A stretch of DNA of 63,956 nucleotides, the filler included, from Dugesia japonica (taxonomy: Eukaryota), in NCBI GenBank assembly GCA_001938525.1. It is 6 parts of 6 records of this genome, joined end to end, with 100 filler letters (N's around TTAATTAATTAA, not from the genome) between each part and the next. Parts side by side here need not be neighbours in the genome. Positions count along the whole stretch, not along the records: positions 1 to 12,449 come from MQRL01630514.1; positions 12,550 to 20,723 come from MQRL01294422.1; positions 20,824 to 34,127 come from MQRL01637876.1; positions 34,228 to 46,896 come from MQRL01645758.1; positions 46,997 to 55,663 come from MQRL01505143.1; 1 more part is not named here. One strand, given 5' to 3'. Made by a program: the position numbers and the translations under genes. Below, one piece after another: positions 1,000-47,530 of the stretch. Numbering within the stretch: position 1 is the stretch's first letter; each line of letters begins with the position of its first letter. Under the pieces are notes generated by a model, which saw nothing but the letters and a program-made list of their open reading frames with translations, did not search any database and was not told where the DNA came from.

Positions 1000-1531
1000 A
1001 ATATTTTTTTAAAGTTATGTGTTTCCGTGAGGAGGGGGGTATGGTCTTTGTTCTGAAATAGAAAAAATTTCGAGAAAAAGTATGACTCATCACAAAAATA
1101 CTTTGGGTTAAAATGTCTTTGTTCTGACATAGAAAAATTTTCGAAAAAAAGTATGACTGATCACAAGAAAGTGGCGGAGAAAAAAGTGGGCGGGAAAAAA
1201 AAGTGGCGGAGAAAAAAGTGGGCGCAACAAAAAAGTGGGCGGAGCAAAAGATAAAAAGTGGGCGTGAATAAAAAAGTGAGCGGAGCAAAAAGATAAAAAG
1301 TGGGAGTGGCCAAAAAAGTGGGAGTGGCCAAAAAAGTGGGCGGTGCAAAAAGATAACAAGGTGGTCGTGGCCAAAAAAGTGGGCGGAGCAAAAGATAAAA
1401 AGTGGGCGGGCAAAGGATAAAAAGTGGGCGGAGTCCAAAAAGGGCGGAGTCCAAAAGTAGGCGGGGCTATGACTCATCGGGGGTACCATCCCTCGAGGGG
1501 CCCTGGTTTGGTGCGCTCATATCTACTTACT
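1000..1531 (-). mobile_element. Polinton/Maverick-type terminal repeat (right end) with GC-box (GGGCGG) array
   Basis: Ends ...GGTGCGCTCATATCTACTTACT (rc AGTAAGTAGATATGAGCGCACC). A related diverged copy at 47060-47453 ends at the same base. Tandem AAAAAGTGGGCGG units at 1165-1466. Confidence 0.7.
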
Positions 1532-1929
1532 GTCGCTGCCTTCAATTTTACAAATACTGACCCAGATCTGTGGTTGGAATCAAGCCAGTCAGGCGATCCA
1601 TAATTGTTGTATTAATAAAAATTTCAAAAATCATTGACTTAAATTTTGTGTAAGTTAAGTGAAAACTGTTGAACCTAAAGACAAAGGTTTATGGGTGCGC
1701 ACCTCCCATTAAGAGAGAGGTCAACCGCCATAAACTGAAGACCTGCCTTANNNNNNNNNNNNNNNNNNNNNNNNNNNNNNNNNNNNNNNNNNNNNNNNNN
1801 NNNNNNNNNNNNNNNNNNNNNNNNNNNNNNNNNNNNNNNNNNNNNNNNNNNNNNNNNNNNNNNNNNNNNNNNNNNNNAAAAAAATTTAATATGGTGCCTG
1901 ATGTAAACTCACTCTTAAATAAAAATTGA

Positions 1930-2345
1930 TATGGGTTGGAATCTATAAATTTAGGCTCTATAGAAAAGTTATAACAGACTTGCTTCAAACTTATTCATGC
2001 ACAGCAGTAAAAGCATCTATAATTATGGTACTTCAATTTTATATCTGAAGAAAAAAACATTTCGAATTCGGGAGACAAAAAGGAAAATTTATCCAAGTTT
2101 TTATGTAGCCCTCTTCTTAAAAAGATTTGGGACCACTGTTCTAAAGCATATGAATTATGCTCATGTGGAGATGTAAATGAAATATGAAATCTTGAAGCAA
2201 ACTCTTGTTAAACCTTTACTTCAAACACTGTTNTTTGATCAGAAACAATGCCTTTAGGTTTACCATATTTGTAAATCCAGTTATTTAACAATACACTTTT
2301 GATTGTGTTTTCGTTTTGATTTGTTGATACATTAAGACTGAATAC
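1930..2345 (-). pseudogene. Ty3/Gypsy integrase fragment
   Basis: Minus-strand translation NQNENTIKSVLLNNWIYKYGKPKGIVSDQ resembles the rve integrase core; the frame is disrupted. Confidence 0.65.
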
Positions 2346-2829
2346 CTAGCTGAATTGATAAATTTAGTTTAATTCAGAATCTCACAACTCTCCATGCATT
2401 TTTATTGAATATTACAAGATTTTATTAAAATGAAAATGCTGAAGAACAATTCACAGTATTCAAACAAATAATCTGAGAAATTTTAATAAAATATATTTTT
2501 TAAAAATATTGATTTTCCTTTTTAAAATATTTTATATATCATAATTTTATAAAACAAGTTTTATAATTTTAATATATTACATAATATAAAATATCGATCT
2601 TGATTTTTAAACACTTTAATATCATAAAACAATTTTTATAATTTTATAATTTTACCTATTATAAAATATCTATTTAGATTTTAAAATAATTAAGTTCATA
2701 AAACACTTAATAATTTTTAAAAATTTATCTTTACTTTTTTCAAAAATATTTGAAAGTTTCAGAAAAAACTTTTATAATAATATATATGTAATATATATAT
2801 ATAAATTAAAAAATCTCAGACATTTGAAA

Positions 2830-5800
2830 TCAATGAATCGTCCTTACAATTCTGAAAAAACACAACCGTAGGTGGATAACTGTAGGTGGACAAAAAACAA
2901 AACATGTTTTACATGTGATTAAAAAAGCCGTATAGCTAGAGACTGCAATATTACTAAATGCTCAGTTGTGGGGGCAACCATCTTATAAGAAACTGCAAAC
3001 AAACAAGAAATTTAAGATACTATCATGAAGAAGAAGAACAAACAGAATCCTTAATCAACGAGGAACCAGAAAAATAAGACTACAGCGATCAATGGAATAT
3101 GATAAGTGAAAATAAACCATCTTGAAACATTCAAAAATCTACTGAATTAATTAAAATGTTAAAACCGTCACACATAGATAAGTATGTTAATTTTATCGAA
3201 GGAAATGGAGCACGGCCAAGACAAACACTTAACAAATACCAACCAACACTAATATCATTGTCAAGTCCAGAAAAAGAAAGAAATGAACCCAGTTTTGAAT
3301 GTCAGGTTGCAGGGATACCAGTAAAAACTATGTTTGACACGGGTGCTGATTTGAATATTATAAGCCAGAAATTAGCCGAGCGTATCTGTAATCAGAACCT
3401 TGCTGTAAGAAATTTTAAATCTATGACAATTTACCAGAAAGCCGTTTGGATTATGCTCAGCAACAGCGACATTTCGGCGGCTTGTGAATATTGTATTGCG
3501 AAATGAAAATTGGAAAAAGTGTGTAATATATATAGACGATGTTTTAATATTCGGTAAAACTGTACTAGAGCCCAATGAAAGACTGGACCAAATATTAAGA
3601 AGAATAAGAGAAGCTGGATTTAAATTAGCAACAAATATATGTAAATTTTTAAAGGAAAAATACAATATCTCGGACATATAATAACTAAAAATGGAATGGC
3701 AAAAGATCCTGATAAGATAATCGCAATTCAAAAATAGGAGATTTCTGAATTTTGAAAAGAACTTCAAAAATATTTAGGGATTTGTAATTATTATAGACGA
3801 TTCATAAAAAATATGCAAATTTATCAGATCCTCTCAATTCGATGTAAAGAAAGAAAACAAATTTCAGTGGACAAATTAAAATATAGAATAGTTCGACAAG
3901 CTGCGTAAAAAGTGGAAAACAAAGAATGGGAAATATATCTTGTATACAGATGCTTCTCACGACCCAATTGGCGCTGTACTTTCTCTAGTACAAGATGGCG
4001 AGGAACGAGTATTATACTATGCATCGAAGACACTAACAAAAAGTCAGAGACAGTGCTACATCACAAGAAAAGAGCTTCTGGCAATATATGTATTTGACCT
4101 CAAGTTTAAGAACTATTTAATGGGATTATAATTAGTAGTGCGAACAGATCACCAAACATTTAAATGGATGCTTAATTGGGATAACCTAAATACGTCGCAA
4201 TACTGCATATAAAAAGCTGAATTTGAAATCTTTGATATAATCGTAGAATTTAGAAAAGGTCGTGAACATATTAATGCTGATGCGTTTTCACGATTACCAG
4301 ATTGCGAACAGTGTTTAATAAAACACGAGGATCCAAAAAGAAAAAGAAACGTTAAAATATACAAAACAACAGACAAAGATGAGGAAAAAAGTATACGCTC
4401 CGAAAAAATTATAAATAAAATATACTAGGAAGACAAATGGTAACAAAGAAAAGATATAAATTTACGAATAATACTACATGCTCTAGAAAGAGACGAGAAA
4501 ACACTTGGTGACGTAGAGGTTAATCAGGAAATACAATTGTATGGGAGAAAAAGAAAGAACTGCGAATACGAGGTGAGATTCTATACTTAGAATAAGATGA
4601 AAAATATCTTTTTATTGTGCCCAGACATAAAAGAGAAGATGTCATTTGGAAATTGCTTAAGTTATTGGGGCATCCAGGAGTAGAGAAAACAACAGGAGTT
4701 ATTAAAAATGAAAATTTTTGGTCGTGCATGGACAAAAGCATAAGAGAACAACTATCAAAATGTAAGCAGTGTAATGCGCATAAATATATTAACAGAAGAA
4801 TTAAAGCACCATTACAGAATATATCCGGAAAATAACAATTTCAAAGTATTGCAATAGATATTACANGACCATTTAAATCAACGCAATATGGTTATAAATA
4901 TATTCTTGGATTTGTGGTTTATTTTTCAAAGTTTATATGTTTAATTTCATTACGAACAATAACAACTGAAGATATATGTCAAGCTCTTTGGATACATTGG
5001 ATATCCAAGTTTGAAATACCTAGTCGAATTCACTTGGATTGTGATATTAATTTTAGTTCAAGTACATTTCAGAAATATTGCAAGCAATTGGGAATCGTGA
5101 AAACATTTTAATTTCAATATCACCTTCAAGGAAACGGATTAGTAGAAAGATTATTTAGAACCGCTAAAATTATGATTAGCATAGATTAGAAAACAGGCGA
5201 ATTCAAGATTGGAGTACGGTGCTACCAATAATATAATATATATTACGAACAACACCAAAAACGACTAAGTACTCTACGTATGAAATAGTATTTTGGAGGA
5301 AACCTAGAATAGATATGTGGAATTCTGGAAGGAGAGAAACAAACATCACAAATAATTCTGAAAAATATGTAGAACAATTAAAAAGAAATATTATGAATAT
5401 TCATGGCAATGTTAGAAAAAATATAGAAGAGCATAATGAANTTACAACAGCTAAATATGAAAAATATCGATGGAGAGATGAAATTAAAATTGATGTTAAA
5501 ATGCTGATAAAAAATAATGCACATGATAGTTTTAACAAGTGATATATTGGACAATTTTAAGTAATAAAGAAAATTAATGAATGGACTTACACTTTGCTTG
5601 ATAAAAATAGAAACACATTAATTCAAAGAAATNNNNNNNNNNNNNNNNNNNNNNNNNNNNNNNNNNNNNNNNNNNNNNNNNNTAGAACAATTAAAAAGAA
5701 ATATTATGAATATTCATGGCAATGTTAGAAAAAATATAGAAGAGCATAATGAAGTTACAACAGCTAAATATGAAAAATATCGATGGAGAGATGAAATTAA

Positions 5801-6340
5801 AATTGATGTTAAAATGCTGATAAAAAATAATGCACATGATAGTTTTAACAAGTGATATATTGGACAATTTTAAGTAATAAAGAAAATTAATGAATGGACT
5901 TACACTTTGCTTGATAAAAATAGAAACACATTAATTCAAAGAAATTACAACCAAATCAAAAGAATACCAAGAGACGAACTTTACTATGGAGCACACAGAT
6001 ATCAGTAAGAAGTAAACAAAAAACCGCCTTACCAGTACAGCCTGACCGACCAATTGAGAGCGATATCAGAAGACGTTATCCAGAAAGAATGANAAGGAAT
6101 CCGAATCCTCAATATCGATAAACCAAAGGGAGGAGTGTGATATATTTAAATTATAGTAATGTTTAAATATATCAAAATTCAAATTATTGAATATTTAAAA
6201 TTAAATATTCAAAATATTAAAATAAATTTTATTTGTTTTAATATTGATATTTTATTTGAATATAATTTTAACTTGTTAATCATCTTATTATTTAATATCC
6301 ATATTTATATAACATATATAAACAAAACTTCAAGGTCACA
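2830..6340 (+). mobile_element. Degenerate Ty3/Gypsy LTR retrotransposon (gag zinc knuckle, PR, partial RT, RNase H, IN, PPT, 3' LTR)
   Basis: FDTGADLNII (protease), PFGLCSATATF and YIDDVLIFG (RT), YTDASHDPIGAVL (RNase H), HPGV...CKQC and integrase core, in PR-RT-RH-IN order. Many stops and frameshifts; the RT N-terminus is deleted. Confidence 0.92.
6125..6340 (+). repeat. Polypurine tract (6125-6135) and putative 3' LTR (6136-6340, TGTGA...TCACA)
   Basis: AAAGGGAGGAG is directly followed by TGTGA, with complementary TCACA at 6336-6340. No 5' LTR was identified. Confidence 0.55.
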
Positions 6341-6629
6341 ACAATTTCCAACTCTTTATAAAATCAAATTATTATTAATATCTTATGTTCCCCGGTGGAA
6401 TATTAATATTTGAAATCAATGTTTTACTAAGTAATACGAATCAATTAGTAGGTTATGAAAATTGTCACTAAGAATTACAATTTTCCACAGTAATGATTAC
6501 CTTTCCTTGAATGATGCTAGAATGTCACGATAGTGACATTTATATTGCATCAATCTCTCGTTTGTCATGGATTCATCTTGTGTATGTAATACATCAAATT
6601 ATACTTTTATCACATATAATATATTATGA

Positions 6630-6775
6630 TTAAAAAGTTCATGTAAATTTTCAATGATATTTTAAAAGTTCATGTAATTTTAATATTATTTTCACATGAT
6701 TTTTGAAATTCAATAAAGTCCATGTAATTTTACAATGAGGTTATAGAAGTTTATGTAAATTTCAAATAATTTTCA
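6630..6775. repeat. Degenerate ~29-bp tandem repeat (AAAGTTCATGTAAATTTTCAAT...)
   Basis: Four recognisable units. Confidence 0.6.
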
Positions 6776-7249
6776 CATACCTTATGAATATTTCAGATAA
6801 AATTATTTGACTTCAAGTAAATTAAATCATGCTATCTCGTTATTTCTTGTTCTCTCGCACTTATCTTTTTTTACTCTTTTTCTAGCTTATTTATTCTCTA
6901 ACAATTATTGGCGTGTATTTGATTAAATATAAATGAGATTATAACGAAGTATTCCATTATTTTTATAGCAATAATTCAGTCTCCAAAATCATCGAAAATG
7001 TTGATTTATAAATAATTTCAAACGTTTGTAATTGATAATTTACTAGAAATTAATAAAAATATGGTTCGTCGAAATGTATATCTGAGCAAAGCCAGAAGTA
7101 TTAAAAAACATAAAAATTAATTATTATCACTTATAAATACAAAGAATAAGATATTAATAAAAAAAGTACTATATAAATAACATGGTTATTAAACAACACC
7201 ATTATTACCAATCACATCAGCTGCATTAAGTTTAACTTATTTGAAATAA

Positions 7250-7480
7250 ACAATGGGTGGATTACAATCATTATCTGATTTTCATTTGAAATTTTCATCT
7301 AATTATTGTAATTGGCAAACTCAAGACAATATTGACAGATTCTCAAGACCCCACAAGTTTTCGTCGCATAGAAAAATTGATGAAAGCAGCTCAAATCCAA
7401 AACCAAGACTAAAAATTGTTATCGGGTCAAGTAGTGTACAATCTGAACCAAGTAATGATGTAAGCCAATACCAAAAGAGA
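7250..7480 (+). pseudogene. Polinton integrase 5' remnant
   Basis: Aligns by eye with 12590-12800 and with the rc of 63300-63420 (KLMKAA...LSGQxxY). Confidence 0.6.
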
Positions 7481-7519
7481 TTGACTAGGCACAATGGTAC
7501 CTCCAAACTCCTGGACTTG

Positions 7520-8100
7520 GAATTGATGAATTTGTTGCAAAGATTAATGCACTACTATTATTCCTTGGCGTAGAGAAGGAGACTCTTGTTTTACAAGCTG
7601 ATGTCACAACCCGCAGAATCTGTAGTAAAATAGACCTCCCAATAGAGCAAAGAACCAGGAGAAAAAAGCGAATGTATGGCGAAGAATCACAAGATGTGGA
7701 ATTGACATTAGGAGAGGAGGTAAAACAAGAACTCTTGGATCGTGTCACTAATAAAAGTTCTTCACGCATGTAGCAGCTTTGCGACCTGAAAAACAACTTC
7801 AGTTTTCTAAAAGCCACCTAGCATTTGGAAGAGAAAAATACTAGACGCCATCAAAAAACAGGTGGAACGGATAACAAATGTCTACACCGAAATCAATGCA
7901 GCAGAATTGTTAGAGGAAACAAAACAATTTTAAAGGCCCACTGGGACATTTTTCGGCATCACCAGAGAAGAAATCTTACACTAATCAGCGTTAAAGATAT
8001 TGCAATGGTTCTTGACATGAGCGCTCATCGGAACTCTACTGAACCTCACAATTCTTTTTTGGATCTTCCTTATTATGGGCGTCTTTGTGGTAAGCTGTAA
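7520..8100 (+). pseudogene. Probable hAT transposase C-terminal remnant
   Basis: ICSKIDLPIEQRTRRKKRMYGEESQD...LLDRV resembles the basic RxRRKKR segment of hAT/ZMYM-type transposases; disrupted. Confidence 0.45.
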
Positions 8101-9485
8101 AACTAAAATTAAATCTACGAAGGAAATAAATCTATAAACATTGAAACTTAATTACACATCCGACAAAAGCTATTGAGTGACTAGAGGTATAGTTGAAAAC
8201 AATATTGAAAAATTAAAGTAGATATTTGTGGAGGAAACTAGGAAAAGGATCATATTTTAAGAGATATTTTCATGTCATAATATTTCTAGTCTTTCAAAAA
8301 TCCAATTTTATTTCTTTCCTCCGAATACGACGTGTATCTTGCAACCTATTGATTAATGAATTACCAGCATTTTTCAAATAATATTTCTTATCTTATATAA
8401 TAGCAAATGGTTTAGGAAACGTAAATTTTAATTTGAAAAATTACCATCGAGAATATTTTATTGGCTTGGATTAACACAAGTAAAAGTTGCATATCTAATT
8501 GTTTCCAAAAACAATATATTAATATTTTTAATTAATATTTTTTTGAAAAAGATAGTTTTAGAAATTACGAATAAGTTGATATATTTTATAAGAAAAACGG
8601 TCTTTTAAATGATGAAGTTGAACCCAATGATTATATTAAAAATGATAACAATATTTATAATAAAAGACTAAAAATTTCTGTAATTTTTAAAGATTTGCTG
8701 GGAAATGAACTAATTGTTTCACATTAAGAATAATCTGAAGGAATAATTGTAAAAAGGAATCGTATTCAAATACTCCTGAGATGGTTACATATTTAATGAT
8801 TTTAATGTGACAAATGACAGATCTGTGAATATGTATAATAAATAGAAACTTAAACTTTCTGGAAATTTCAAATTTGATTTTATTTATCAGGTAAAAGAAA
8901 AATAACTTAAATTAAGAAATTCATGATATTCATACTGTGGGGAAGTAAATACTTCCAAACTAGAATTAAAAGAATATTATAGAAAGTTGTTGGTTGATAA
9001 GAATTATTTATTGCTTGGCAGAAATAATTATTACTATAACAATTATTATTATCTTGATATTGTTAAAATTAACATTTTATATTATTTTTTATTTTATATT
9101 TTATATTATTATCAATGATTTTTTCGAATTTACGGATTTTATCTTTTCAGTAGGATCATGTAAGATTTATTACTTTATTTATTGTTGTAATTGTAAGGAT
9201 AACTCTTTGGTGTTAAATACTTTATTTGTTATTAATTTTCACGTTTTTGTTAAATTGTAATCTTCGTGTTCAAAAAATGTTATACGAATAATTTTTGTTG
9301 GTGACTTGTGAATGTCTTGAAAGAAAATAAACTTGACATCGCTAACAAATACTATTTCATTTGAAAACTTTATAAGATCCCGGGAATCGCCAAACTTTGT
9401 ATTATTGTGAGATATGATAGTGAATTATATAATATTCTTATATTGATTATTATATTTTAGATATAATTAATTGACATATGTATAT

Positions 9486-9623
9486 AGTAGATAGATAGTG
9501 GGAGTGAAGAACAGCACACATTCAGTAGACCCCCCCCCCGTGTGTAAACATTTATTACATAACTGTTTTTCATTTTTTCTAATGTAAATAGGCGGCAGCA
9601 CACATTTGTGTGCGTTACATAAT
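9486..9623 (+). mobile_element. Polinton-type left terminus (same family as 18580 and 20923)
   Basis: AGTAGATAGATAGTGGGAGTGAAGAACAGCACACATTCAGTAG... closely matches 18580-18720. Confidence 0.7.
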
Positions 9624-10234
9624 NNNNNNNNNNNNNNNNNNNNNNNNNNNNNNNNNNNNNNNNNNNNNNNNNNATATGATAGTGAATTATATAATATTCT
9701 TATATTGATTATTATATTTTAGATATAATTAATTGACATATGTATATGACAATGGATGAGTGTCTAATTGTTATATGATTGATACATATTTATTAGTGTC
9801 ATTTTGTGTTATTAATAAATATTATATGATTAATTAGATTGTTCAGTTCAGTGCTTCTTAAACATTTTACATTCATGACTACATTTTCATCATGAAATTT
9901 TTTACGACTCTAACAATAATTATTATATAATTATTTGAAATTGAAATATTGACATCAATTAATTAAAACAATAACGTGTTGTTGTCTATATAGTTATTAA
10001 GTCTTAATAATTAAGATAAACATAGTCCATCACTCATGTTGAAAATACATACATTGTCGATGCGATAATCCCAATTACGTATAAATTGAAATTCGATAAG
10101 TGCTCGAATTTAATGAGACTTCAACAATTTATTCTCGAACCCAAATGAGGTCGTTAGCCATAGTTTAATAAGCGCTGGTTTATGAAATAAGCAATATATT
10201 AAAACAAAATTAATTTAATTAAGATTTGTAAATA

Positions 10235-11375
10235 TCATTTTATTCGTAGATTACTCATTGCCAGCCGAAAATATGATAGTATACTAACAAAATTTCTTTA
10301 AAAATATTTTAGTCTCAATATTTATACAATTTTACTCACAAGGCATCCTTAAAATACTGTTGAAATACTGGAGAAAGACTAAATAAATAAATTATTCAGG
10401 CCTTTTAATGCCAATTTTACTTGTCTGTGTATTTATCGATAAATATACTATGGCAAGAATTTTCAATACGAAAAGATATATCCATGGAAAACAATGTAAA
10501 TGAATTAATAAATCCCGGTGGGAATTGAGATAAATCGATATTTAGTATTGTTGTATTTGATAAAACATTTCTGAAATAATTATTGATTTTCATCGTTATA
10601 ATTAATCAATCAAGAACTTGAATTCATTAATGAATTTCTTTAATTGATATTTTTTAATGTCATCATTATTTTCATCTCGAAAATTATCCCATCTAAACTG
10701 ATAAATAAATCATTTTCAATTATTGATTGATTATTGCCTTAAAAATTTATCCAATATGTATTTATGATAAATCTTCCGACATTTCTCAAAAGTGGAATTT
10801 TGATTTTCATGACTATCGTGANCACTTATAAAAATATTATTTTTATAACAAACTCATTTAACCTTATAATTAATTTGTAATTTTCATTCTCATCGATTTC
10901 AGCTACAGTTTGATTTTCTTTCAATTCTTTTCCTACAACATTCCAAATACTCATTATACTTGGAAAATAGTTTTTTATTATTGATTTTATGGTAAAAATA
11001 GAAGAGTTTTTCTTTGCAATCAACCAAATACAATGCACCTTGGGTCCAGCCAGAAACAAATCCATTATAACTTCATCACTGAAATCAAAGATATTCGTTA
11101 AAAAATATTAATTTCTCAATTAACCCATTCAAAATGTTCTCAATTTTACCAAATTTTATTTCATCATTTGAATGTAAATTGTAAAAGGTAATACATTTAT
11201 TGTTTATAAGAACAATATTTTTATGAACTAATCGATAGAAATATTTATCATAATTTCCATTTCCTACCAATTTTTTATCTAATTCTTTTTTAATTTCCTC
11301 AACATTCATATTTTCAGTGATATTCATCTTTACTCGTTCACCTGTTTTTTCATAATTTACAACAAAAACTTCCAT
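10235..11375 (-). CDS. Probable host gene, 7 exons, ~292 aa, two N-terminal ubiquitin-like domains
   Basis: Exons 11375-11125, 11078-10863, 10824-10738, 10692-10618, 10570-10421, 10378-10340 and 10295-10235 splice in frame across six 38-47 nt introns (five GT-AG, one GC-AG). Exons 1 and 2 have a UBL-like pattern (MEVFV...VEEIKKEL...YRLVHKNIVL...YNLHSNDEI). Splice sites were chosen manually. Confidence 0.55.
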
Positions 11376-11593
11376 TTTTTAAAGGAAAGATGAAATACAA
11401 GAATTACATTTCAGAAATAATCAAAATTCAATAATAATAAATAAACCAATAAAATTTTAAATAATAATAGTTAAATAATTAATTAATCAATTGACCTCAA
11501 GTGATTCAACCAAACAAATTAGTAATTGTACGACTATTACAATAATTGCGAAAGTAATTGTTGGACTTAACCATTGATCTTTTTTTCAGAACT

Positions 11594-11738
11594 CATTAAA
11601 ATAAAGGCTTCGGTGAATTTTTTTGTTTTTGATAATAAGTAGTATTTTCGATTTAGCCTTCGTCAGGAATTGACTTTTTTCGAATATTCTTATTATTAAC
11701 AAAAACAAAAAAATTGAACGAAACTTTTATTTTAATGA
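11594..11738. repeat. Hairpin/foldback Penelope-derived repeat with decayed hammerhead core
   Basis: ~47-bp imperfect inverted arms. The centre on the minus strand reads AATTC-CTGACGA-AGGCTAAATC-GAAA, the same family as 22446/22870. Confidence 0.6.
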
Positions 11739-12449
11739 AAAAAAATTATTAATATTTGGAAATTAACTAAATGCTCAATTTTTATTTAAATATATAATCA
11801 GTATTTTTATTCTTTATTTATATTTTAATTCATACCAAATTTTTGACATTCTTAACCCATTGTTCAGGTATCATTTTTCTTTATAATTATATTAAAAATG
11901 ATCTAATTCGAATATTTAATCGTTCATCATGTTAATCGTTAATTATGTTCGTTACAAAATTCAAATTTGAACAATTTCAAAAAAAACTGACAATATACAA
12001 AAGCAAGTATAATTTTTGGAATCAAGATTGTAACATAACAATGTAGAGTTCAAAACAAACATTACAAAAAATCAAACATATACATTCATACAAACAGCGA
12101 TTTCTAAAAAATGTTCCATTTAATACCAAAAATTGTTACGTAAATAATCTACGCAACAATTCATTAATAATTATCCCGTGACGAAAAAGTTAAGTCTTTT
12201 TCATTTTTTAACTAACAAATAAAATAAATTTATATGTACTGCATTATATATTCTTGTTTGTGAGTTAAATTGAAAATAAATTTTAGCAGGTTCTCGTGTA
12301 GAAATTGACACCAGTTACTTTATAGATTTTAGTAGATTTCAGATTTTTATTTTGTAAGTGTTGAAAAAATAATAATTCAGCGATTATCGTTTATAATTTC
12401 ATAGATTTTGTATTTAAACATGGTTTCTACAAATTTAGGTAATTTATTC

Positions 12450-12900: not shown

Positions 12901-13072
12901 ATAAAGTTTACAAGTTTTAATTTTTTTGTTATTTATCTCTGTTTTCAATAGATTTCCAAGAATTTCTCAGTTTAAAGGAAATGGGATGAATAAACAATAT
13001 TATATCAAATGTTATGGATAAAACAAAGTGAGATATAAGTAACACAAATAGTCAATCAAGACAAACATTCTG

Positions 13073-18570: not shown

Positions 18571-18579
18571 AAGTTCATA

Positions 18580-35780: not shown

Positions 35781-36781
35781 TAAATAGATCAGGATTTAAT
35801 TCCGATATTACTGAACAAGGATATTATTAATATTCATATTGTAATATTAAAGTCTGCCCAGGCAATATTTTACCTTTTTATTAGTTATGTTTACATTTTA
35901 TCAAGTTGTAACAATAAAATCCTTAATTGTCGTAAAATGTCGTTAAGAATGATGAGTTGTATTACATCATGAAAAAATATAAAATGTTTAATTTTAATTC
36001 TCGTGGCGAAATAAAAATTTAAATAAATAAATTAACTTAATTTGCATAAAAATCCAAAAAAATTTAAATGAAAATATTAAAAGTAAATAATTCGGTAAAT
36101 TAGAAAAAAAATACGAACAAAAGTAACGTAATTGCNCATATTTTCAAATCTACTAGAAACTCGAAAAATGTTTAAATCACCATATATTACGTAATCCGGG
36201 TTGATCCAGTGTGGACTTATCTATCTACTATTCATGAATTTTATCAATCAAGAAATACAAGAAAAATCCTTTCACTATTTGATCAATTTTTTGTGAAATT
36301 ATTTTTAAATCATCATAAAAATAAATTACTTNNNNNNNNNNNNNNNNNNNNNNNNNNNNNNNNNNNNNNNNNNNNNNNNNNNNNNNNNNNNNNNNNNNNN
36401 NNNNNNNNNNNNNNNNNNNNNNNNNNNNNNNNNNNNNNNNNNNNNNNNNNNNNNNNNNNNNNNNNNNNNNNNNNNNNNNNNNNNNNNNNNNNNNNNNNNN
36501 NNNNNATGATTAATTGTTAAAATTAACTAGGAACACAGGAAACCAACAACAATAGAAAGAAATCTTTTTCTTATTGTTTCCATAGAGTTTAATATTATTT
36601 TAAATACATAATTTAGTCTATTGATTTCATTATTTATGTATTAATATTTTCTAAAGAAAATGTGTAACTTTAATTTAATTAAAACCTTCAAATATATAAA
36701 TAATAATTAAGATAAATATAATCAATAAATTTATTATATATTACAATCAGAACATATTATTTTTTTATAATTATTTATAAT

Positions 36782-37680
36782 TATTAGATTGGTAAGAAAA
36801 TAATTGCGGTTTTTAACATATAAAAATAAAAGTAAAAATCTCGGAAAACAAAGATATTTTATTCAAGATATGAACCATCACAATCAATACATCTCTCCTA
36901 ACGAGAAATGAGTTTTTTTTATCACAATAGAATAGAAATCCGCTGTCCTGAATTCGATGAACTCGAGGAAGGCATTTTAAACATCGTCATTATGTAAGTC
37001 TTTCTCTTGAAGAAAATTGGAGAGAAGATAAAAAAATGATAGTCGGTTGGCGACAGGTCCGGGGAGTATGGTGGATGAGGCAGAATTTCAAATTGTATGG
37101 ACGGGGATTGTAGTGAAGAATAATGGGATGTTTTCTGTTAACTAATGCAGCGCACATAGATTTCAATTTGCGGTGCATTTCGTCCATTTCTCGACACTTT
37201 TTCTGCCGTCATAGTTTCACCTTGATATAATTATAAATAATTATAACNNNNNNNNNNNNNNNNNNNNNNNNNNNNNNNNNNNNNNNNNNNNNNNNNNAAC
37301 AAAGATATTTTATTCAAGATATGAACCATCACAATCAATACATCTCTCCTAACGAGAAATGAGTTTTTTTTTATCCCAATAGAATAGAAATTCACTGTCC
37401 TGAATTCGACGAACTCGGCGAAGGCATTTTAAACATCGTTGTCATTATGTAAGTCTTTCTCTTGAAGAAAATTGGAGAGAAGATAAAAAAATGATAGTCG
37501 GTTGGCGACAGGTCCGGGGAGTATGGTGGATGAGGCAGAATTTCAAATTGTATGGACGGGCATTGTAGTGAAGAATAATGGGATATTTTCTGTTAACTAA
37601 TGCAGCGCACATAGATTTCAATTTGCGGTGCATTTCGTCCATGTCTCGACACTTTTTCTGATATCATAGTTTCACCTTGA
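36782..37680 (-). mobile_element. mariner 3' fragment (assembled twice across a gap)
   Basis: TIR TATTAGATTGGTAAGAAAATAATTGCGGTTTTT (Hsmar1-like); HYNARP and PPYSPDLSPTDYHFF motifs. Confidence 0.85.
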
Positions 37681-37835
37681 TATAATTATAAATAATTATA
37701 ACAAATTAATTATTAATTATGCATAATATGCTCTGATTGTAATAGATAATAAAGTTATTGATTTGATGATTATATAAATGATTATCAATCATTATTTATT
37801 AATATTTTATTTAGAAATTTTAGAGTTGCCTGAAA

Positions 37836-38460
37836 AGTAGAAACATATGAGCGCACTATATTTTTTAAATCAAATTTTTATGAAATCCGGGTGAACAACC
37901 AAATATTTTTGAAAAATATTTTTATTCTCATATTTCAAAAATTTTTATACCAAACTGAAAATTTTAGGTGGGTCACTTTTAGATTTTCCAATATTATAAA
38001 CCGAATTTTTCGAAAACATTTTGTCTATTCGAAATTGGTCAACAAAATGTCCATTCTATAGAAAATGTTTTGCTGAGTAATAACTGAAAATCACTAAACC
38101 TTATCTTGGTTCAAATAAATGAGGATTTTTTTCTAATAAATTTTAATTTTCTCAGTGTACATAACTCTCATTGGCTCAAATTTAGTATCATTGAATTCAG
38201 GAATAAAAAGTAACTGGACAAACATATAGTATCATCTCGGCAAAAATATTTCCTAACGAAGATAGTCAGCCGNCCTCCTGGATTTGATAACTTTTTTCGC
38301 AAAAATAAAAACTAACTCAAATTTGAACATTAATGTTTCTATTCAATGTGAAATTTTACGGTGTGAATAATTATTTAATCATGCGTAAAAATTGACAAGC
38401 CTTAACCCTAATAAAATAAATTGAAAAACAAGTTCTTAATTTGGAAGTCTTCTTCGAGGA
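37836..38460 (+). mobile_element. Polinton-type left terminus and internal repeat
   Basis: AGTAGAAACATATGAGCGCACT; internal segment homologous to 19780-19960. Confidence 0.55.
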
Positions 38461-40807
38461 AAATAAAATAATAAAAATATTCTAATAATTTACTTGGTGT
38501 GGTCGATTCAGTTTATTTTTTGGGTGGTCTTTAAGTGAATATGAGTGACATTTTACTTGATCAAATCAAATCAATCTAAGCTAATTTCGGACATAAATTT
38601 ACTCGATGTCAAATCAGATTAATTTGAGTCTAGACTTTCTTCAGTATTGGTAATCATTATCAAATTATTTCATTAGTAAGGTTTAATTTTGTCTATTTGT
38701 TGAGTGGTTTTGACTCATTTTATGTGATAATTTATTCTTCATTAGTCTTTTCTCTCACTTATTGGTCTTCTTACTCTTGATTATTCTTATCTCTTCACTG
38801 AATTTCCACCCCTTACTAAATTTTTCACTCATTATTGGTCTTTCCACTTTACACAGGTCTTCGCTATTCACTGGTATTTCTATCACTTACTGGTTTTCTT
38901 CTACTATTTGTAGGTCATCACAATCATTTATTGTTTTTTCCGCTATCTAATGGTCTTTATTTTTCACTGGTGATAATATTTTTTTGCATTAAGGTTTGTA
39001 GTATTCCAAAATTTAAACTTTAATTATAAATGCTAATATCAATGTCAACCTTATTATCAATTACATCGTTAGTAAAATCAATCTTTTGACTACAACTTAT
39101 ACATTATTATATGATTTCGTTATTGAAAATATGAGGTTTACTATTGGAAATAAATATTTTATCATTGAAGAATAATAGACTTATCATTCGAAAATAATGG
39201 ACTTATTATTAGAAAATAATAGAGTAAATTTAGTTTTTAATTATATTACATTATTCTATACATACAGTCATTTAATCCATTTAATTTATACACTTTTTGT
39301 CACTATTTCACCTTATCTTTAGTCTTTTTCTGAAGTTCATCCTTATTTACGATATTTATCTTACTTTTCCCGGGTTTTCACTATTTTAATCTTTTCTTGA
39401 GCAATATATTTACCCTATTTCCTTCTATTTTCCAAAGTTTATTTCTACTTAGCTATATTTTCTATTAAATCTCAATGCATATTGTCTATCATTTGTATAG
39501 ACTTCTCTTCATTANNNNNNNNNNNNNNNNNNNNNNNNNNNNNNNNNNNNNNNNNNNNNNNNNNNNNNNNNNNNNNNNNNNNNNNNNNNNNNNNNNNNNN
39601 NNNNNNNNNNNNNNNNNNNNNNNNNNNNNNNNNNNNNNNNNNNNNNNNNNNNNNNNNNNNNNNNNNNNNNNNNNNNNNNNNNNNNNNNNNNNNNNNNNNN
39701 NNNNNNNNNNNNNATTCAGTAGTATTGATAAAAAATAATAAGAGTTTAACATAAAAAATACAATTCTAATCATTAGAAATACTTGTTTTAACAAATAAAG
39801 CAATGGCCTAATCCATGAAAATATAGTTGTTTCATGAAAATACGTTTTTAATGTCAATACTTAAGGTTAATACTTTTATGTTTGAATTTGATATATTTCT
39901 TATTTCTTCAAAACTCAGTGATTTAATTTTGCTCGGCGGAGACTTTAATTATTTGAATTTATTAATAATAATTATCTGGACTTAATTTTTGATGTACTTC
40001 ATGACGGCTAAGTTTTGAAGACTTTAAGTGATATTGTTTTTGATCAGCACAAAATTCTCCATCGAAATAAAATTAAAATTCTTTAAGTTATTCAGTTACT
40101 CAAAATATAATATATTATTCAGTTAGTGGGTTATTTAAACTATCATATATGTATGTTGAGTACTCCCGTGTGGCACCCGTAATAATATTTCTTATATTAT
40201 TAATTATCAGCTTCATTAATAAAAAAAACAAAAAGAAAAATTTCAAAAGAAAATAATTTAAAAGTAGCCGGAAAACTTTTCAACTAATCAAATTTTGCAC
40301 CAAAATAATTGTCAAAAAAAATAAAGTTCATCAGCTGTATCAATCACCACCTGATATCTATGTGGATTCTGTTGTTGGAATATTCTTGGAAGATTTCATA
40401 TTAATAGGATACCTGTAAGAAGGTAATATATTAAAGAAACTTTTGCCCATTTTTTTAAAAAACAAAATAGTAAACATCTGTCGAGTGTTTGTAAATGCAA
40501 ATTATATTTGTCAAACAACTAGGATGTTTATACTCGAGATCAATATTTATTTTATATTTACTTTTAATATAAACAATTTAATTTTTACATTTCACTTCAT
40601 ACTTTAGACTTCATCTTACTGAGGGAATTTAAATAAATTTTGACATTTTATTAATTATTTTTATGGCTGTAAAAATAATAAAAATCTAAAGTTTCCTGAA
40701 TTCATCAGATTTCATTTTTATTTTTTAATTACTGAATTTGGCGTTAATGATTATAATNNNNNNNNNNNNNNNNNNNNNNNNNNNNNNNNNNNNNNNNNNN
40801 NNNNNNN

Positions 40808-40868
<61 letters not shown>

Positions 40869-40879
40869 TAATAATAATA
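40808..40879. repeat. (TAA)n microsatellite
   Basis: Near-perfect trinucleotide run. Confidence 0.95.
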
Positions 40880-41855
40880 TAGGTTAAAAATAATTTTATT
40901 TTGAAATTAAAAAATTAGTGAATTCCATTTAAGAAATATTTAAAAAATGTGACTGCCTATTATTATTTATAATGTTATTTGTATAGTTTCTGTAAACCTT
41001 TAGTAATTTTGATTAACTTACAAAAATTGCACATAAGATCCTCGTGGGAGAAAATCATCCGAATATTTTTTGTAATAGAAAGAATTTAGCTGAAAGAAGA
41101 AGAATTTATCATTTTATAAATAAATTTTCAATGAATTTATATTTAATATTTATTATTTACAGCTACTAAACAATAGATAACAATTTTGTTTTCATCAAAC
41201 AAATATTTGTTTCACTTTTTGTTTGTTGATTAAGCCTTTCTGTCTTTTTAAACTTTGATTCATTTCCGTTTTCACTTATTAACCAATTAAGCTTTAAGTT
41301 CTTCGAAACATAATTGTCTATTTTGTTTTCAGCAGTTCCATTGCAAAGTTGGGTATCGTTCAAAAATAATCGCAAGAAATTTTACGTCTTTTGAATCTTG
41401 TACCAAACTCAATAAAAGTATTTGAGCTTGGTTTCTTTCAAGATCATCTTTGAGCTGCCTACATCTAGCAGAATTGAGAATCCAAACAAAGTTTTGTATA
41501 GTATTTTGCCGTCTTTTGTGGCATATATTGTACCGGAATGAAACAAGCTGATTATCTATTGTTACATTTGAAAAATATTATTTTATGTGAAATTTAGAAA
41601 CTCATTCTCACAAAGATTTGGAATTGGTGTTAATGTATGACTAGCTCTGCGTTCTAGTCGACTGGGTTTGTTAAATCGAATAACATGAGTTATTATTTTG
41701 AAGATTCTTCGACGTAGTCGCACGAAGAAATAAACGTTTTATGATGCCACAAATTATTAATAAGTTTACAAGGATACCAAAAAACTACAGCCAAAATTAA
41801 AATTATAATATACAGGTGCAGTTCAATATTTTGTTATATTTAATATTACCACACG

Positions 41856-42457
41856 AGTAGTGAGATATGTCCGCACTGCCGCACCCCCCCCAGCCAGAAA
41901 AAAAATTTTTCGTCAAATTTTTTTCGCGACAAATTTTTTTTGAGATATGGACTTGAAACTCCACACATGTGGAGTCGAAACGAAGCATTTTTCGAGCATA
42001 GTACTTTAGACAATGTATGTAGACAATGTAACTTTTAATTTTAAGACTAATGGTAATAGTTTCAAGTCCATATCTCAAAAATAAAATTTAAAATTTAAAT
42101 TCAAATTCAAATATTTTATTGATCCNNNNNNNNNNNNNNNNNNNNNNNNNNNNNNNNNNNNGACGCATACTAGCGCGCATCTTTTCCACTTTTCAAAACA
42201 TCGATAGCATACACACATTAACCTAGAATTACTTTTTTAAAACTTTTAATATTTTGAAAAAAAAAATTTTTTTCAAGAATTTTTTCTCAACAAAAAAATT
42301 TTAAAAAAAATTTTTGTCAAAAAAAATTTTCAAAAAAATTTTTCAAAAAAATTTTTCAAAAAAAAATTTTCTAAAAAATTTGTCTCGAAAAAAATTTGAC
42401 GAAAATTTTTTTTTCTGGCTTGGGGGGTGGGCAGCAGTGCGGACATATCTCACTACT
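41856..42457. mobile_element. Short Polinton-type element with ~85-bp TIRs and 6-bp TSD (CACACG)
   Basis: CACACG|AGTAGTGAGATATGTCCGCACTGC...GCAGTGCGGACATATCTCACTACT|CACACG; internal 36-N gap. Confidence 0.85.
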
Positions 42458-43487
42458 CACACGCATCGTCAAAGGTTTGTAAATCTTCAAAATTTGTATT
42501 ATCAGCAACTTTTTTGCAAAGATTTATTAAAACATGATTCAAATTCATCCATTATATTTTCGATTCGCGGACGTTTATACTATTTTCTTCTCTTGACCTT
42601 CCATAAGTTGTAAATATTACTGCTTTCTAATTTAAGATTTTGAAATTTGACACGTAAATATCTACGTAGTGATCTTCCACATTATTCGTAGTACTCCTTC
42701 TATTTTTCAAATCTGGCAATATATTCTACCATATTTGAAATAAAACCTTCTCACAAACCAAGATCTTTTTATAACCTCTGTATAAACTTTCTTCTTTAGA
42801 ATTATCTCGACAATACATAGCTTCATTATCATCATCAGTTTCTTATATTATTTCTACTTTAGCAGTTTAGCTCAGAAACGTTGAAGGTCAAAACTAAATA
42901 CCCAATATTTTTTTAAAACATGTTAACCTTACATCATGAATTCATTCTTATCTTTAAAAACAAATAACTGAAGTACACTTGGCAAACACCTGCAGTGATA
43001 ACTACTTTAAAATAATATGGTAAGCGTGTAAATGCTGTTGGTGAAATTTCTCTAGACTAACGCACGCGTTATTTATTTGAATGCATCTTTGGAATGCTAA
43101 CATTATNTATGTACAATATTGAAGAGATATTGAATGCATTACCGGATTTCATTTTTACATCTAAACATAAAGTCTACAATAAAGTCCCACAGAAATACTG
43201 TTTGCACATCAGTTGAGCAAAAAAAAGTGGTGGAAAAGCAAGAGATTTGGTTGATAGGTAAGGAAGTAATTTCAGTTACGAGAGACCAATAATTTAGAAA
43301 GACGTACAAAAACAAAGGTAATGATATATACCAAGGTTCTTATGATTTTAAATGATGCACAAAAGGCGCTATGTGTGCTTTTAAAAATATCTAAGTAAAT
43401 GCGGTATTTTAAAAATCCATGTGGTAACATTTTAATAAAGATTTTGTGAATTCTAACATGTTTTGATATTATAGGTTACATAAAAGG

Positions 43488-44150
43488 AGTAAGGAATAGT
43501 AGCACACGGTCACAACTTGAGAAAACCCTCCTCCTCCTCCCTCCCTCTGGGTTTACTCGACAACTGCTTACGATTTAAACAGACTTTTGTGACCGTATTA
43601 TTGTAATTGGGTTTTTTTCTAAGATTTTTTAAGATCAAAAACATTTTGATTGGATCAAATTTTTTTTAGATCAGATCATTTTTTTATACTGATGCGTGGT
43701 TTTATATTTTTAAATTTTAAATTTTGTGTGTGTTTGAGTTGCTAAAGGGATATTTAAAAATAGGGAAAGTTGAGTTTGTGTGTTTGGTTGTGTGTAAGTG
43801 TGAAAGAAGGAATTCGAAGGGGAGCTGAAGATCTTGGAAATAATTTTTCGGGGTATTTTAAGATTTGGTTGTGGTTGGACAAAAATTCGTTCTATATACT
43901 GTTTAAAGTACTTATGAGGTTGGATAAATGGTTTGTCCTAGAAGTGTGGTAGCGCACGGTCACAGTTGTATGAGTTATCATGGGGTATTTTATGGAGGGT
44001 GTATGTTTGTATAGGGTTGTTGGATTTTGTTGGTTTATGAGTTGTTGGAAAGGTAATGTGATGGAAAATATTTGGGAAGTCAATTGTGACTTAATTTATG
44101 ATTTTTAGTGCTTGAATTTGATTGGTCAATTTTTGTAAGTAGTATAAGTT
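43488..44150 (+). mobile_element. Family-B Polinton-type left terminus
   Basis: AGTAAGGAATAGTAGCACAC; colinear with the rc of 15150-15838. Confidence 0.65.
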
Positions 44151-44719
44151 TGTTAAAATAGATTAGTAATGGAGTATTGAGGGTACATCCCCTTTACCCT
44201 GCTGGATTTTGAAAGACCTGTTTTTTATAGCCCAAATGATCACTTTTAAGTCCTTTTCATCAATATTTACATAAATTAGATTAATAAAATTGTTCAAATT
44301 TTCAAAATTTTCAAATTTTTCAAATTTATAAAAATATTTTATTTGAGAAGTTTTGGAATTTATGGGTTTTTTCTCATTTTACCAAAATTTGATTTATTTC
44401 ATAAATTTAAAAAACAAATTTCCCTGGAGAAAAATTACATTTTTAGGTAAATTTTAAAATAAAATAAATTTAATTGAAAAAAGAATGGAAAATTTAATCA
44501 TTAATAATTGATCAGAAATAATTGATAAAAATATAATTTTATATACTAAATGTTACTTTAATTCTAAAAAACATGACGATTTTTCCATTAGTTGTTTTTC
44601 AGAAAATTATCAATATATTTATTCTTTACTTGCTTATATTAAAACAAGAATAGGAACGATTTGAAAGACAATGTATTGGAATTGATTTTAAATGCGAAAA
44701 AAGAAAATTAGGGTTAGAA

Positions 44720-45007
44720 TTGAAATATTCAATATTTTCATCTTGCTGGGATTCTTATAAAAATATTTACAGAAAACTTCATAAATTTAAAATTTTATAC
44801 CCAAACTATCAAGTTGTTTATGGTTGCTTGAAAGATCGAATACCAAAGAATTTTAAAGATAAAAATGAAATTTGGACAATTTCTGGCGAAAATTTATGGT
44901 ACTTTTTATTTAAAAAACAAGGAAAAGAATTAAATAATTTAATTGAAGAAGAAATAAAATTAAAAATAAATCAAATATTGAAAGAAGATGAAAATTTGAT
45001 AAAATAA
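44720..45007 (+). CDS. Hypothetical protein upstream of pPolB (probably Polinton accessory gene remnant)
   Basis: 95-aa open frame just upstream of the pPolB 5' fragment; no recognisable motif. Confidence 0.35.
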   Translation: MKYSIFSSCWDSYKNIYRKLHKFKILYPNYQVVYGCLKDRIPKNFKDKNEIWTISGENLWYFLFKKQGKELNNLIEEEIKLKINQILKEDENLIK

Positions 45008-45190: not shown

Positions 45191-45192
45191 TT

Positions 45193-46668
45193 TTATTGTT
45201 CAATTTTAGTCATTACTATTGGATAATTAGTTCCTAATATACATTTAAAATTAAATTCTAATTCTTCAAATAATTTTACAAATTCTGTTACTGCAGTTTC
45301 TCCAAAGAATTCATAATATCTTGATTCTATTAATTCTGGATAACCAAAAACTATTTGCATGCCAAAAGACATTGCTTCTTGTTTAAATAATTTATTACTA
45401 GTTGAATTTTGATTAATTTTATTAAATGCTTCAAAATCCGCATAAATTCTAAATGGAACTTTATTTTTATAATGAAATTTATCAAATTCGAAATATTGTT
45501 TAGTTGGGAATGTATTTTCGGCAGGACTATTTCCTCTACAATCCAAAACATAATGTTTATTTAATGTTCCCATTGATCTAAAAGAACATAAACAATTTAA
45601 ACATGGAAAAGCTCTATGTGTACTTGAGTGCCTTAAAAAAGTTGAAACATCTTTACATAAAACATAATTTCCTTTTAAATTTTCATCAGAATCATTATGT
45701 GAATAGAAAAACAAATTTGTATAATGAATTTCATTAATTGTAATTGGTTTCCAATATCTATGTTCAACATGTATTTGTTTTATTGTTTTATGTCTATCAA
45801 TTTCAAAAACATTTATTTTAAAAGACGAATTTAATGAAAAAAACGTTGTAATGTCTTTTAAAGATAAAGGAAATGTTAAATTATTATTAAGATTAATTTC
45901 ATTAGGATATTTATAATAAGATTCAGGTTTTAAAGGATTAATTTCGTTTGGATGTAAAGAAGCTAAAATTGACCAAATAAAACAATAATCGTCATTATTT
46001 TCAATATTTAATAAATTAGTTTCATTAAATGGTAATTTAATATATGATCCTGCAAAAGAAGTTCTGTATTCACAAATTGTTAAAGAAATTTGAATTAAAC
46101 TAGTTATATTTAATCCTCTTACTTGAAAATCATCCATTTGAGTTCTAAATTGATTATAGATTTCAATTAAATTATTTTCGATATCATTTAATGAAACGAC
46201 TACTTTTGCTTGATGTGAAATACCATAATCAATAATTGTTTCATTTGGTGTTAAATATTTACAAACTAGATTAATTCTCATTTTAAAAGCATTATTGTTT
46301 GGAAAATAATAATTAGTTATTAATTCTTTGAAAATATTAAAATAATCAATTGGAATTTCTCTTCTATTATTATTTTCTTCAAGATTTCTAGTAATTGAAA
46401 CTAATTCATTTCTATTAAATAAATTAAATCTTTCTAATCCATTAATGTTTAGAAAATTGATTAATCGTTGATTATTTGCTAAACCTGAAAATCTTTGAAT
46501 ATTTTGAATTTGTCTTAATTTATTTAAATGATCTCTTCCATTTAAATGTCTATCAATTTCATATTGATATTGAAAATTTCTACTACAAATTTCACAATGT
46601 AATTGACTATTTTGATTATTTTGCTGAATTTGGTTATTTTGATTTAAAAGATTATTTCTATGTTTCAT
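45193..46668 (-). CDS. Polinton protein-primed DNA polymerase B, N-terminal part (zinc finger, terminal-protein region, ExoI), truncated
   Basis: CEIC...HLNGRDH finger; GSYIKLP...NIENNDDYCFIWSILASLHP; CLNC...H...C; PFRIYADFEAF (ExoI). Polymerase motifs are absent. Confidence 0.88.
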   Translation of the reverse strand: MKHRNNLLNQNNQIQQNNQNSQLHCEICSRNFQYQYEIDRHLNGRDHLNKLRQIQNIQRFSGLANNQRLINFLNINGLERFNLFNRNELVSITRNLEENNNRREIPIDYFNIFKELITNYYFPNNNAFKMRINLVCKYLTPNETIIDYGISHQAKVVVSLNDIENNLIEIYNQFRTQMDDFQVRGLNITSLIQISLTICEYRTSFAGSYIKLPFNETNLLNIENNDDYCFIWSILASLHPNEINPLKPESYYKYPNEINLNNNLTFPLSLKDITTFFSLNSSFKINVFEIDRHKTIKQIHVEHRYWKPITINEIHYTNLFFYSHNDSDENLKGNYVLCKDVSTFLRHSSTHRAFPCLNCLCSFRSMGTLNKHYVLDCRGNSPAENTFPTKQYFEFDKFHYKNKVPFRIYADFEAFNKINQNSTSNKLFKQEAMSFGMQIVFGYPELIESRYYEFFGETAVTEFVKLFEELEFNFKCILGTNYPIVMTKIEQ

Positions 46669-46712
46669 AAATATAAGATAAAGCTTCGNTCAAAACAAAA
46701 TTTATTTGTAAA

Positions 46713-46750
46713 ATGTTCAAATTTTCGACAATAGTCTTCTTCAGGAACAT
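46713..46750 (-). ncRNA. Minimal type I hammerhead ribozyme in Penelope-like pLTR fragment
   Basis: AUGUUC-CUGAAGA-A-GAC(UAUU)GUC-GAAA-AU-UU-GAACAU; stem I covaries relative to the 22870 copy. Confidence 0.82.
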
Positions 46751-46896
46751 GTTGGCTTCTTGAGATATTCAATGCAACAGACCATTGTTACTAAATTCTT
46801 TAAATTTTATCAAAATTTTATCGGTTTATTTTTTTAAAATTTATTGATTTTAATTTTTTTTATTTTTTTTAAAATTTAATAATTTTAATTTTTTAT

Positions 46897-46996
46897 NNNN
46901 NNNNNNNNNNNNNNNNNNNNNNNNNNNNNNNNNNNNNNNNTTAATTAATTAANNNNNNNNNNNNNNNNNNNNNNNNNNNNNNNNNNNNNNNNNNNN
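46897..46996. other. Artificial scaffold linker
   Basis: 44N-TTAATTAATTAA-44N. Confidence 0.95.
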
Positions 46997-47453
46997 AAAA
47001 AAATATTAAAACAAAAAAAAACGATTAAAACAAAACAAAAAAAATTCTTTATTAAAACAAAATTTTTAAATTTATGTATTTCCGTGAGAGAGGGATGAGG
47101 TATGTCTTTGTTCTGACATTGAAAAATTTTTGAAAAATAGTATGACTCAAAAAAATTCCAAAATGGTCGGATGGTGGGGGGTAGTTGTAGGGGGAGGGGG
47201 GTAAGGGTAAGAGGTAAGGGGTACCTAAATTTCTTTGTTCTGACATTGAAAATTTTTTGAAAAATATGAGTCATCAAAAAGTGGGCGGGCAAAAAATTGG
47301 GCGTGGAGAAAAAAATGTAGGCGGAGAAAAAGATAAAAAGTGGGCGTGACCAAAAAAGTAGGCGGGTTCCAAAAAAGAGGCGGGCAAAATATCGGGATGT
47401 GGGGTACCCCTTCCTCGAGGGGCTCCGGTTAGGTGCGCTCATATTTACTTACT
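46997..47453 (-). mobile_element. Polinton-type right terminus (family of 1000-1531)
   Basis: rc AGTAAGTAAATATGAGCGCACC; GGGCGG array at 47280-47385. Confidence 0.7.
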
Positions 47454-47530
47454 TCATGCGTTCATTAGTATTTAGATAGTAGCGCACTAGATCACCCCCT
47501 CCCCCGCCGACAAAGAACTAATAGAGTAGT

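Follow-up and report, generated by a model that had tools for sequence, protein, structure and literature searches.

Polinton/Maverick ends of Dugesia japonica carry an extended and probably functional end signal

A 63,956-nucleotide (nt) stretch of Dugesia japonica DNA from NCBI GenBank assembly GCA_001938525.1, referred to here as the window, holds at least 12 repeat ends that have a 21-base motif with fixed spacing in common, and four of these ends lead into genes of Polinton (Maverick) transposons. The window consists of six parts from six records with 100 N between them (1-12,449, MQRL01630514.1; 12,550-20,723, MQRL01294422.1; 20,824-34,127, MQRL01637876.1; 34,228-46,896, MQRL01645758.1; and 46,997-55,663, MQRL01505143.1 among them), and adjoining parts need not be neighbours in the genome. 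Its GC content is 26%, it is interrupted by many scaffold gaps, and as one window of one genome it forms the evidence base for what follows. Public sequencing runs that contain this DNA yield 280-930 million letters of contigs, suggesting a large eukaryotic genome rich in repeats. Ends are read inward, the position of an end is the outermost nucleotide of its terminus, and nucleotides are numbered from there. We regard it as real that these are Polinton/Maverick ends with an extended end signal, and the signal is probably functional.

Behind the end at 47467 lie capsid-like, integrase and packaging ATPase genes, which were recognised in a Pfam scan of 36 open reading frame (ORF) stretches of the window (Table 1). 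The integrase, for which 480 homologues were found, is an rve/IS481-like DDE enzyme. A parvovirus-type PLA2-like domain stands in frame with its core, as it does in most of the homologues listed. The PLA2X modules of Alpha-class adintoviruses likewise bring a parvovirus-type PLA2 domain into an integrase-bearing Polinton, whereas here the domain occupies one frame with the integrase core (PMC8502044). An adenovirus-like cysteine protease had no Pfam match in the 36 stretches, and the gene-bearing element is cut by the gap at 55664. Inward of the end at 47453 is the N-terminal half of a family B DNA polymerase of the protein-primed type (pPolB), which opens with a zinc finger of C2H2-like type (PF12171 in P0121) and whose 498 codons are 35% identical over 97% of their length to P0121, a PF03175 protein of 1248 aa (E 1.7e-54); a gap of unknown size (46897-46996) separates it from the end. 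The decayed pPolB fragment near 36229 starts 320 nt inside that end with no sized gap between them. Both polymerase pieces are partial and belong to elements other than the integrase-bearing one, and no gene-bearing element has a second end within the window. Between the end at 15838 and its integrase fragment there is a 59-N gap, both sides of which are colinear with a second copy. The ORF that follows this fragment (13052-13699) may resemble a Polinton minor capsid; Pfam, NCBIfam, a homologue search and the Atlas gave no usable assignment for it. A further decayed Polinton piece (61957-63412, minus strand) contains an integrase fragment and then a homologue of that ORF, and no motif end was found with it. 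An earlier note on this DNA had assigned the ends to Polintons. The four gene-linked ends (47467, 47453, 15838 and 36229), together with one pair of terminal inverted repeats (TIRs) bordered by a 6-bp target-site duplication (TSD), support that assignment, which we hold to be very likely.

Table 1. Repeat ends, the family D element and Polinton genes in the window
Position	Strand	Feature	Family	Remarks
941-1531	-	End, terminus 1531	A	Subterminal arrays of GGGCGG-containing repeats; lone end, inner side towards gap
9486-9623	+	End, terminus 9486	B	74-nt flank repeat
12741-12947	+	Decayed Polinton-type integrase fragment		51% aa to ORF 63048-63383, E 1.4e-14; inward of 15838
13944-15838	-	End, terminus 15838	C	Repeat of ~1.9 kb, inverted copy at 16905-18566
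18580-18799	+	End, terminus 18580	B	Adjoins truncated family C repeat
20824-20923	-	End, terminus 20923	B	76% like 18580; gap of unknown size between
23328-23348	+	Candidate end		Unlisted in the earlier note; profile 13.0, weak
35520-35906	+	Decayed pPolB C-terminal fragment		tblastn with P0121 aa 955-1094, E 1.5e-10
36209-36229	-	Twelfth end, terminus 36229		Missed in the earlier note; profile 21.7
37836-38500	+	End, terminus 37836	E	Interior repeated in genome, inner limit approximate; related to 19767-19947
41856-42457		Element of 602 nt, both ends	D	36-N gap 42126-42161; starts (AGT)2
43488-44164	+	End, terminus 43488	C	4-nt spacer; past diverged start 74-76% like other family C copies
45193-46689	-	N-half of pPolB		From C2H2-like zinc finger through ~aa 490 of 1248; closed by a stop
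47000-47453	-	End, terminus 47453	A	Back to back with 47467
47467-47900	+	End, terminus 47467	F	TGAGTCA repeats; subterminal blocks common with family A; 93-N gap 47603-47695
49360-50715	+	Double jelly-roll capsid-like frames, two ORFs		PF21738, E 0.0086 and 1.8e-14; behind 47467
50705-52102	+	Integrase ORF, PLA2-like and rve core		E 5.3e-9 (PLA2-like), 1.9e-9 (PF00665); behind 47467
52459-53295	+	A32-like packaging ATPase		PF04665, E 5.4e-10; behind 47467

The earlier note had listed eleven ends, and every sequence that it quoted lies, letter for letter, at the coordinate and on the strand it gave. The motif is far more frequent in the window than in shuffled sequence. AGTA-N11-SCGCAC has 7 matches against a mean of 0.01 (maximum 1) in 100 dinucleotide shuffles, AGTA-N5-ATA followed by TG or GT has 13 against 1.67 (maximum 5; 100 dinucleotide shuffles), and the strict pattern has 5 against 0.00 (100 shuffles). 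A looser pattern suggested for scanning was also enriched, and about half of its matches appear to be chance, since 18 were observed where shuffles gave 9.0 (maximum 16). Its matches at 31445, 32972, 34981, 49169, 54353 and 61602, all outside the top 22 profile scores, were taken as chance. Because nt 1-4 and nt 10-12 had been the selection criterion for the listed ends, a further test was begun from the distal block: of the window's 16 SCGCAC hexamers, 7 are preceded by AGTA exactly 15 nt upstream, the remaining 9 all lack AGT at that distance, and nt 4 is A at all 7 sites where AGT is present.

Position counts were made on the ten ungapped ends, leaving out 43488 with its 4-nt spacer. All eleven listed ends start with AGT (by selection). 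Blocks are kept at nt 10-12 and nt 16-21, the commonest base at each position of the latter being matched in five of the six families, and conservation drops past nt 22. Free variation of nt 5-9, as first described, applies to nt 5-6; the next positions are biased, with A at nt 8 and G at nt 9 in 8 of the 10 ends. When a 21-position profile was built with one family left out and scored at 121,242 window positions, 7 of the 10 ungapped ends, from families A, C, D, E and F, scored above every unlisted site. The idea of a position-fixed inner block across diverged TIRs is thus supported for five of six groups; the ends of family B were missed by this profile, and we regard its inner block as a variant. 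The leave-one-out recovery and the alignments described below indicate that the inner block is common to TIRs that mostly do not align otherwise. With the full profile, 36229, a site not used in building it, scored within the span of values obtained for the listed ends (17.7-32.2).

A C-rich tract (at least 6 C in 10 nt) is present at nt 22-70 of the inward strand in 10 of the 11 listed ends and one of the two new ends; 3.6% of random 49-mers have such a tract, which was found post hoc in ends that are not independent. A hairpin common to the ends was not found, as six of the seven ends folded no better than shuffles, the exception being 41856 with z -2.4. A second copy of the motif's distal part is present ~450 nt inside the family C TIRs (43937-43970 and 17146-17175), where AGTA is absent at the right distance.

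Local alignment beyond nt 22 of all 55 pairs of ends (up to 1.2 kb, stopped at the first gap) gave seven pairs above z 6, namely 1531/47453, the three pairs among 9486, 18580 and 20923, 15838/43488, 41856/42457 and 18580/37836. The families had been described as unrelated, which overstates the case: they form five to six partly related groups, and therefore some of the sharing is explained by common ancestry. The family F end at 47467 and the family A end at 1531 have a common subterminal block (76% over 104 nt), which in 47467 lies beyond its gap, and the family E end at 37836 aligns with the interior of the family B end at 18580 (z 9.2). In family C the ends match over nt 1-21, diverge for the next ~110-120 nt and match again further in.

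The two family D ends bound a short element whose TIRs are 93% alike over 86 nt and which is flanked by a perfect 6-bp TSD, CACACG. Its length of 602 nt is an assembly estimate, because none of the contigs listed bridges the gap within it. Contigs of four sequencing runs, one possibly the origin of the assembly itself, were placed on 36506-45000 at 85% likeness, and their summed depth per bin, which does not equal copy number, was 4,000-26,000 over the element versus 0-55 in the flanking bins. Flank contigs end at 41884 in three of the four runs and begin at 42434 in two of the four, 24-29 nt inside the termini. None of the joints listed skips the element, a result from contigs that cannot prove absence. 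Neither the Pfam scan of ORF stretches nor tblastn found Polinton genes inside families B, D or E. Paired TIRs with a 6-bp TSD, which the earlier note had named as a check, were confirmed for 41856/42457 and for none of the others (1 of 35 end combinations, and 0 of 7 more for 36229). Short non-autonomous Polinton families are present in Repbase. Like butterfly polintons that lack polB, which apparently stay mobile (10.1101/2025.02.07.637071), and Tlr1, sometimes regarded as a non-autonomous polinton (PMC5499653), the family D element would be a TIR-bounded derivative that is apparently mobile without a polymerase of its own; those elements retain several genes and run to kilobases in length, whereas family D measures ~600 nt and has no detected gene.

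An exact boundary was demonstrated for three of the eleven proposed termini: 41856 and 42457, by the TSD and contig breaks, and 9486. The 74 nt preceding 9486 (9412-9485) recur at 9674-9747 and continue there without the element, so that the first A of AGTAG marks the boundary. The site is thus present in a filled and an empty version, side by side with a 50-N gap between them. They may represent an insertion in the heterozygous state, in which case family B would have been active recently. Two other pairings were rejected as ends of a single element, 18580/20923 because no TSD was found and 43488/47453 because there is no TSD and the TIRs are unrelated. At 37836 the depth bins do not resolve a boundary. 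The ends at 47453 and 47467 are only 13 nt apart (47454-47466) and the family B end at 18580 abuts a family C repeat; a preference for insertion near other ends is possible. Summed contig depth reaches 40,000-132,000 at 43606-44173, in the interior of a family C TIR, and 55,000-91,000 at 39062-39345, marking both as very abundant repeats.

The ends may be compared with those of vertebrate Mavericks, whose TSDs are 6 bp long and whose (AGT)2 or (AG)3 ends are expected to allow jump-back initiation, a short terminal repeat being the common and not the only end motif; this motif spans 6 bp with information falling inward, and the available portion of that account names no fixed inner block (PMC8097293). 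The ends described here resemble them in the AGT start, the 6-bp TSD, the TIRs and the links to pPolB, integrase, ATPase and capsid genes. They differ in that (AGT)2 is confined to one family (D; 2 of the 11 listed ends) and nt 5-6 are variable (PMC8097293). The (AGT)2 repeat is absent from the four gene-linked ends, and most ends lack the short terminal tandem repeat, (AGT)2 or (AG)3, that serves as a Polinton criterion.

The conserved core origin of adenovirus lies near the terminus, a position that the inner block parallels. In adenovirus inverted terminal repeats, the core origin is bound by the terminal protein (TP)-polymerase and is followed by NFI, Oct-1, Sp1 and ATF sites; the ends here similarly have a position-fixed block just inside the terminus, and family A has GGGCGG arrays further in, but the elements here sit integrated in the genome and have an rve integrase of their own, and the likeness is one of position only (PMC2685984). 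The octamer ATGCAAAT is not enriched in the window (9 versus 7.4). Arrays occur in the TIR interiors at 1083-1476, 47143-47596, 14651-14889, 9562-9622 and 18646-18842, and we take them to resemble GC-box, AP-1, E2F and PAR-bZIP host-factor sites. The GC box GGGCGG occurs 10 times in the window against 1.6 expected, with 8 in family A; 8 of 14 AP-1-like TGASTCA sites are in families A and F; E2F-like TTCCCGCC lies inside a 26-nt repeat of family C; and PAR-bZIP-like TTAYGTAA is found in family B. These counts are inflated because the sites were identified post hoc and are tandem.

How might such a signal operate? We propose that it is a selected cis signal at Polinton ends, with polymerase docking inside the terminus and gene-less copies served in trans. 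Nucleotides 1-4 would serve both integrase cutting and protein priming, and nt 10-21 would dock the terminal-protein-polymerase (TP-pPolB); the pPolB of polintons has a terminal-protein domain that serves protein priming (PMC11071308), and the N-terminal zinc finger of pPolB is a candidate reader of the inner block. Because A4 is constant, nt 5-6 vary and (AGT)2 occurs only in family D, we infer that priming would take place opposite template position 4 and be followed by a single-nucleotide step back to position 1, for which a full (AGT)2 would not be needed. Gene-less copies such as the family D element could be copied and inserted in trans by borrowed enzymes, and the differing inner block of family B might be read by a different enzyme variant. 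The parts of this proposal are not equally secure. That the motif is a functional signal seems probable; an origin role for the inner block, which is argued from analogy, is an even call; mobilisation across families is a tentative possibility. Taken whole, the proposal has a shade better than an even chance of being right.

Several observations weigh against this proposal. The constancy of nt 1-4 and nt 10-12 in the listed ends is partly a selection effect, and some kinship underlies the sharing, as A is related to F and B to E. The family B ends were not recovered by the leave-one-out profile, in which 3, 10 and 73 sites scored higher than they did, and GCGCAC is absent from all three. A TSD was found at only one pair of ends, and the window has no full-length element with both ends; the gap in the family D element is bridged by no listed contig, so the element could be longer. 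Polinton genes that would tie family B, D or E to the superfamily were not found, none of the gene-less families was paired with an autonomous partner, and the gene links of 47453, 47467 and 15838 cross scaffold gaps. At 43488, contig depth stays at the flank level (9-18) until ~43605 and then rises, which leaves no depth boundary at the terminus; because depth rises only there, we consider the first ~120 nt of this end to be diverged. Outside this genome, the motif was not met beside Polinton genes. Exact motif scans returned 5 loci in viral contigs and 119 in metagenome contigs (~230 estimated), and none of the 124, of which 39 held ~600 nt or less, had a tblastn match to the five Polinton ORF stretches of the window. 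These loci look like chance because their number fits the ~1.9 chance matches expected per Gb, and the scans say little on animal genomes because the collections hardly contain them. Three related loci (L125, L126 and L127) have Polinton genes and no established terminus, and a fourth (L128) is a weak match; L126 has a candidate AGTAGT end, itself not established, without the inner block. An ATPase-based scan for related loci found nothing.

An alternative is that the whole motif is a two-part integrase site, in which a tolerant spacer lies between an outer block for cleavage and an inner one for binding, and that the polymerase needs just the first few bases. Two-part recognition sites occur in many DDE transposon ends. 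The integrase in the window is an enzyme of this type, nothing here ties nt 10-21 to a polymerase, and the 602-nt element, itself gene-less, retains the motif and generates a 6-bp TSD, for which an integrase is needed. Such a site fits the data nearly as well as our proposal does. The points that speak against it are indirect: most ends lack (AGT)2 yet keep A4, as a priming constraint would have it, and the position of the inner block parallels that of the adenovirus core origin, whose role is described in PMC2685984. We consider an integrase site of this kind rather doubtful as the full explanation.

A second alternative is that only nt 1-4 have a role and the rest of the motif is a relic, either inherited from one ancestral Polinton or spread as ends were exchanged by recombination. 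The subterminal blocks common to A and F and the interior sequence common to B and E are in keeping with this explanation, and the agree-differ-agree pattern of family C could also come from recombination. Conservation is blockwise, however, with nt 5-6 variable between the terminus and the kept blocks and a drop past nt 22, and the CpG-containing GCGCAC persists in a window of 26% GC while neighbouring sequence no longer aligns, which makes a mere remnant improbable. Least likely of all, and by our estimate very improbable, is that the gene-less families B, D and E belong to another DNA-transposon superfamily with Polinton-like ends acquired by convergence, as the lack of detected Polinton genes inside them and the differing inner block of family B might suggest, since family D has (AGT)2 and a 6-bp TSD, the vertebrate Maverick signature (PMC8097293), D and E were recovered by a profile built without them, and the nearest integrase relatives, Ginger elements, have TGT ends and 4-5-bp TSDs (PMC2836005), so that a Ginger identity failed on the AGT ends and 6-bp TSD found here.

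Elsewhere in the window, degraded pieces of Gypsy-like retrotransposons and one fragment of Tc1/mariner lie at 3126-5600, 15839-16904, 27408-28735, 32497-33288, 55764-57659 and 60615-61280, the small palindromic or inverted-repeat elements at 11593-11738 and 22430-22920 are related and lack the motif, and no host genes were recognised among the 36 ORF stretches scanned.

Neither a position-fixed inner block common to Polinton families nor a MITE-sized (miniature inverted-repeat transposable element) derivative is described in the available portions of the literature searched, which also covered PMC8502044, 10.1101/2023.08.22.554363, PMC5499653, PMC6431247, PMC2836005, PMC8504770 and PMC9341512; the founding papers and Repbase may show them. 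In the parts of that literature at hand, Polinton work is mainly in silico, and the only cis requirement given is an end motif of 6 bp. The 21-nt signal, its natural variants (family B and the 4-nt spacer of 43488) and the gene-less element name the bases at which recognition by a polymerase could be told apart from recognition by an integrase. The motif also offers a way to find gene-less Polinton derivatives, which annotation based on proteins overlooks. It is conceivable, if unlikely, that many diverged families have in common a modular, adenovirus-like origin with priming at nt 4, docking at nt 10-21, a C-rich tract and host-factor arrays. If that is the case, one enzyme set could replicate and integrate all of these families, including MITE-sized satellites at very high numbers.

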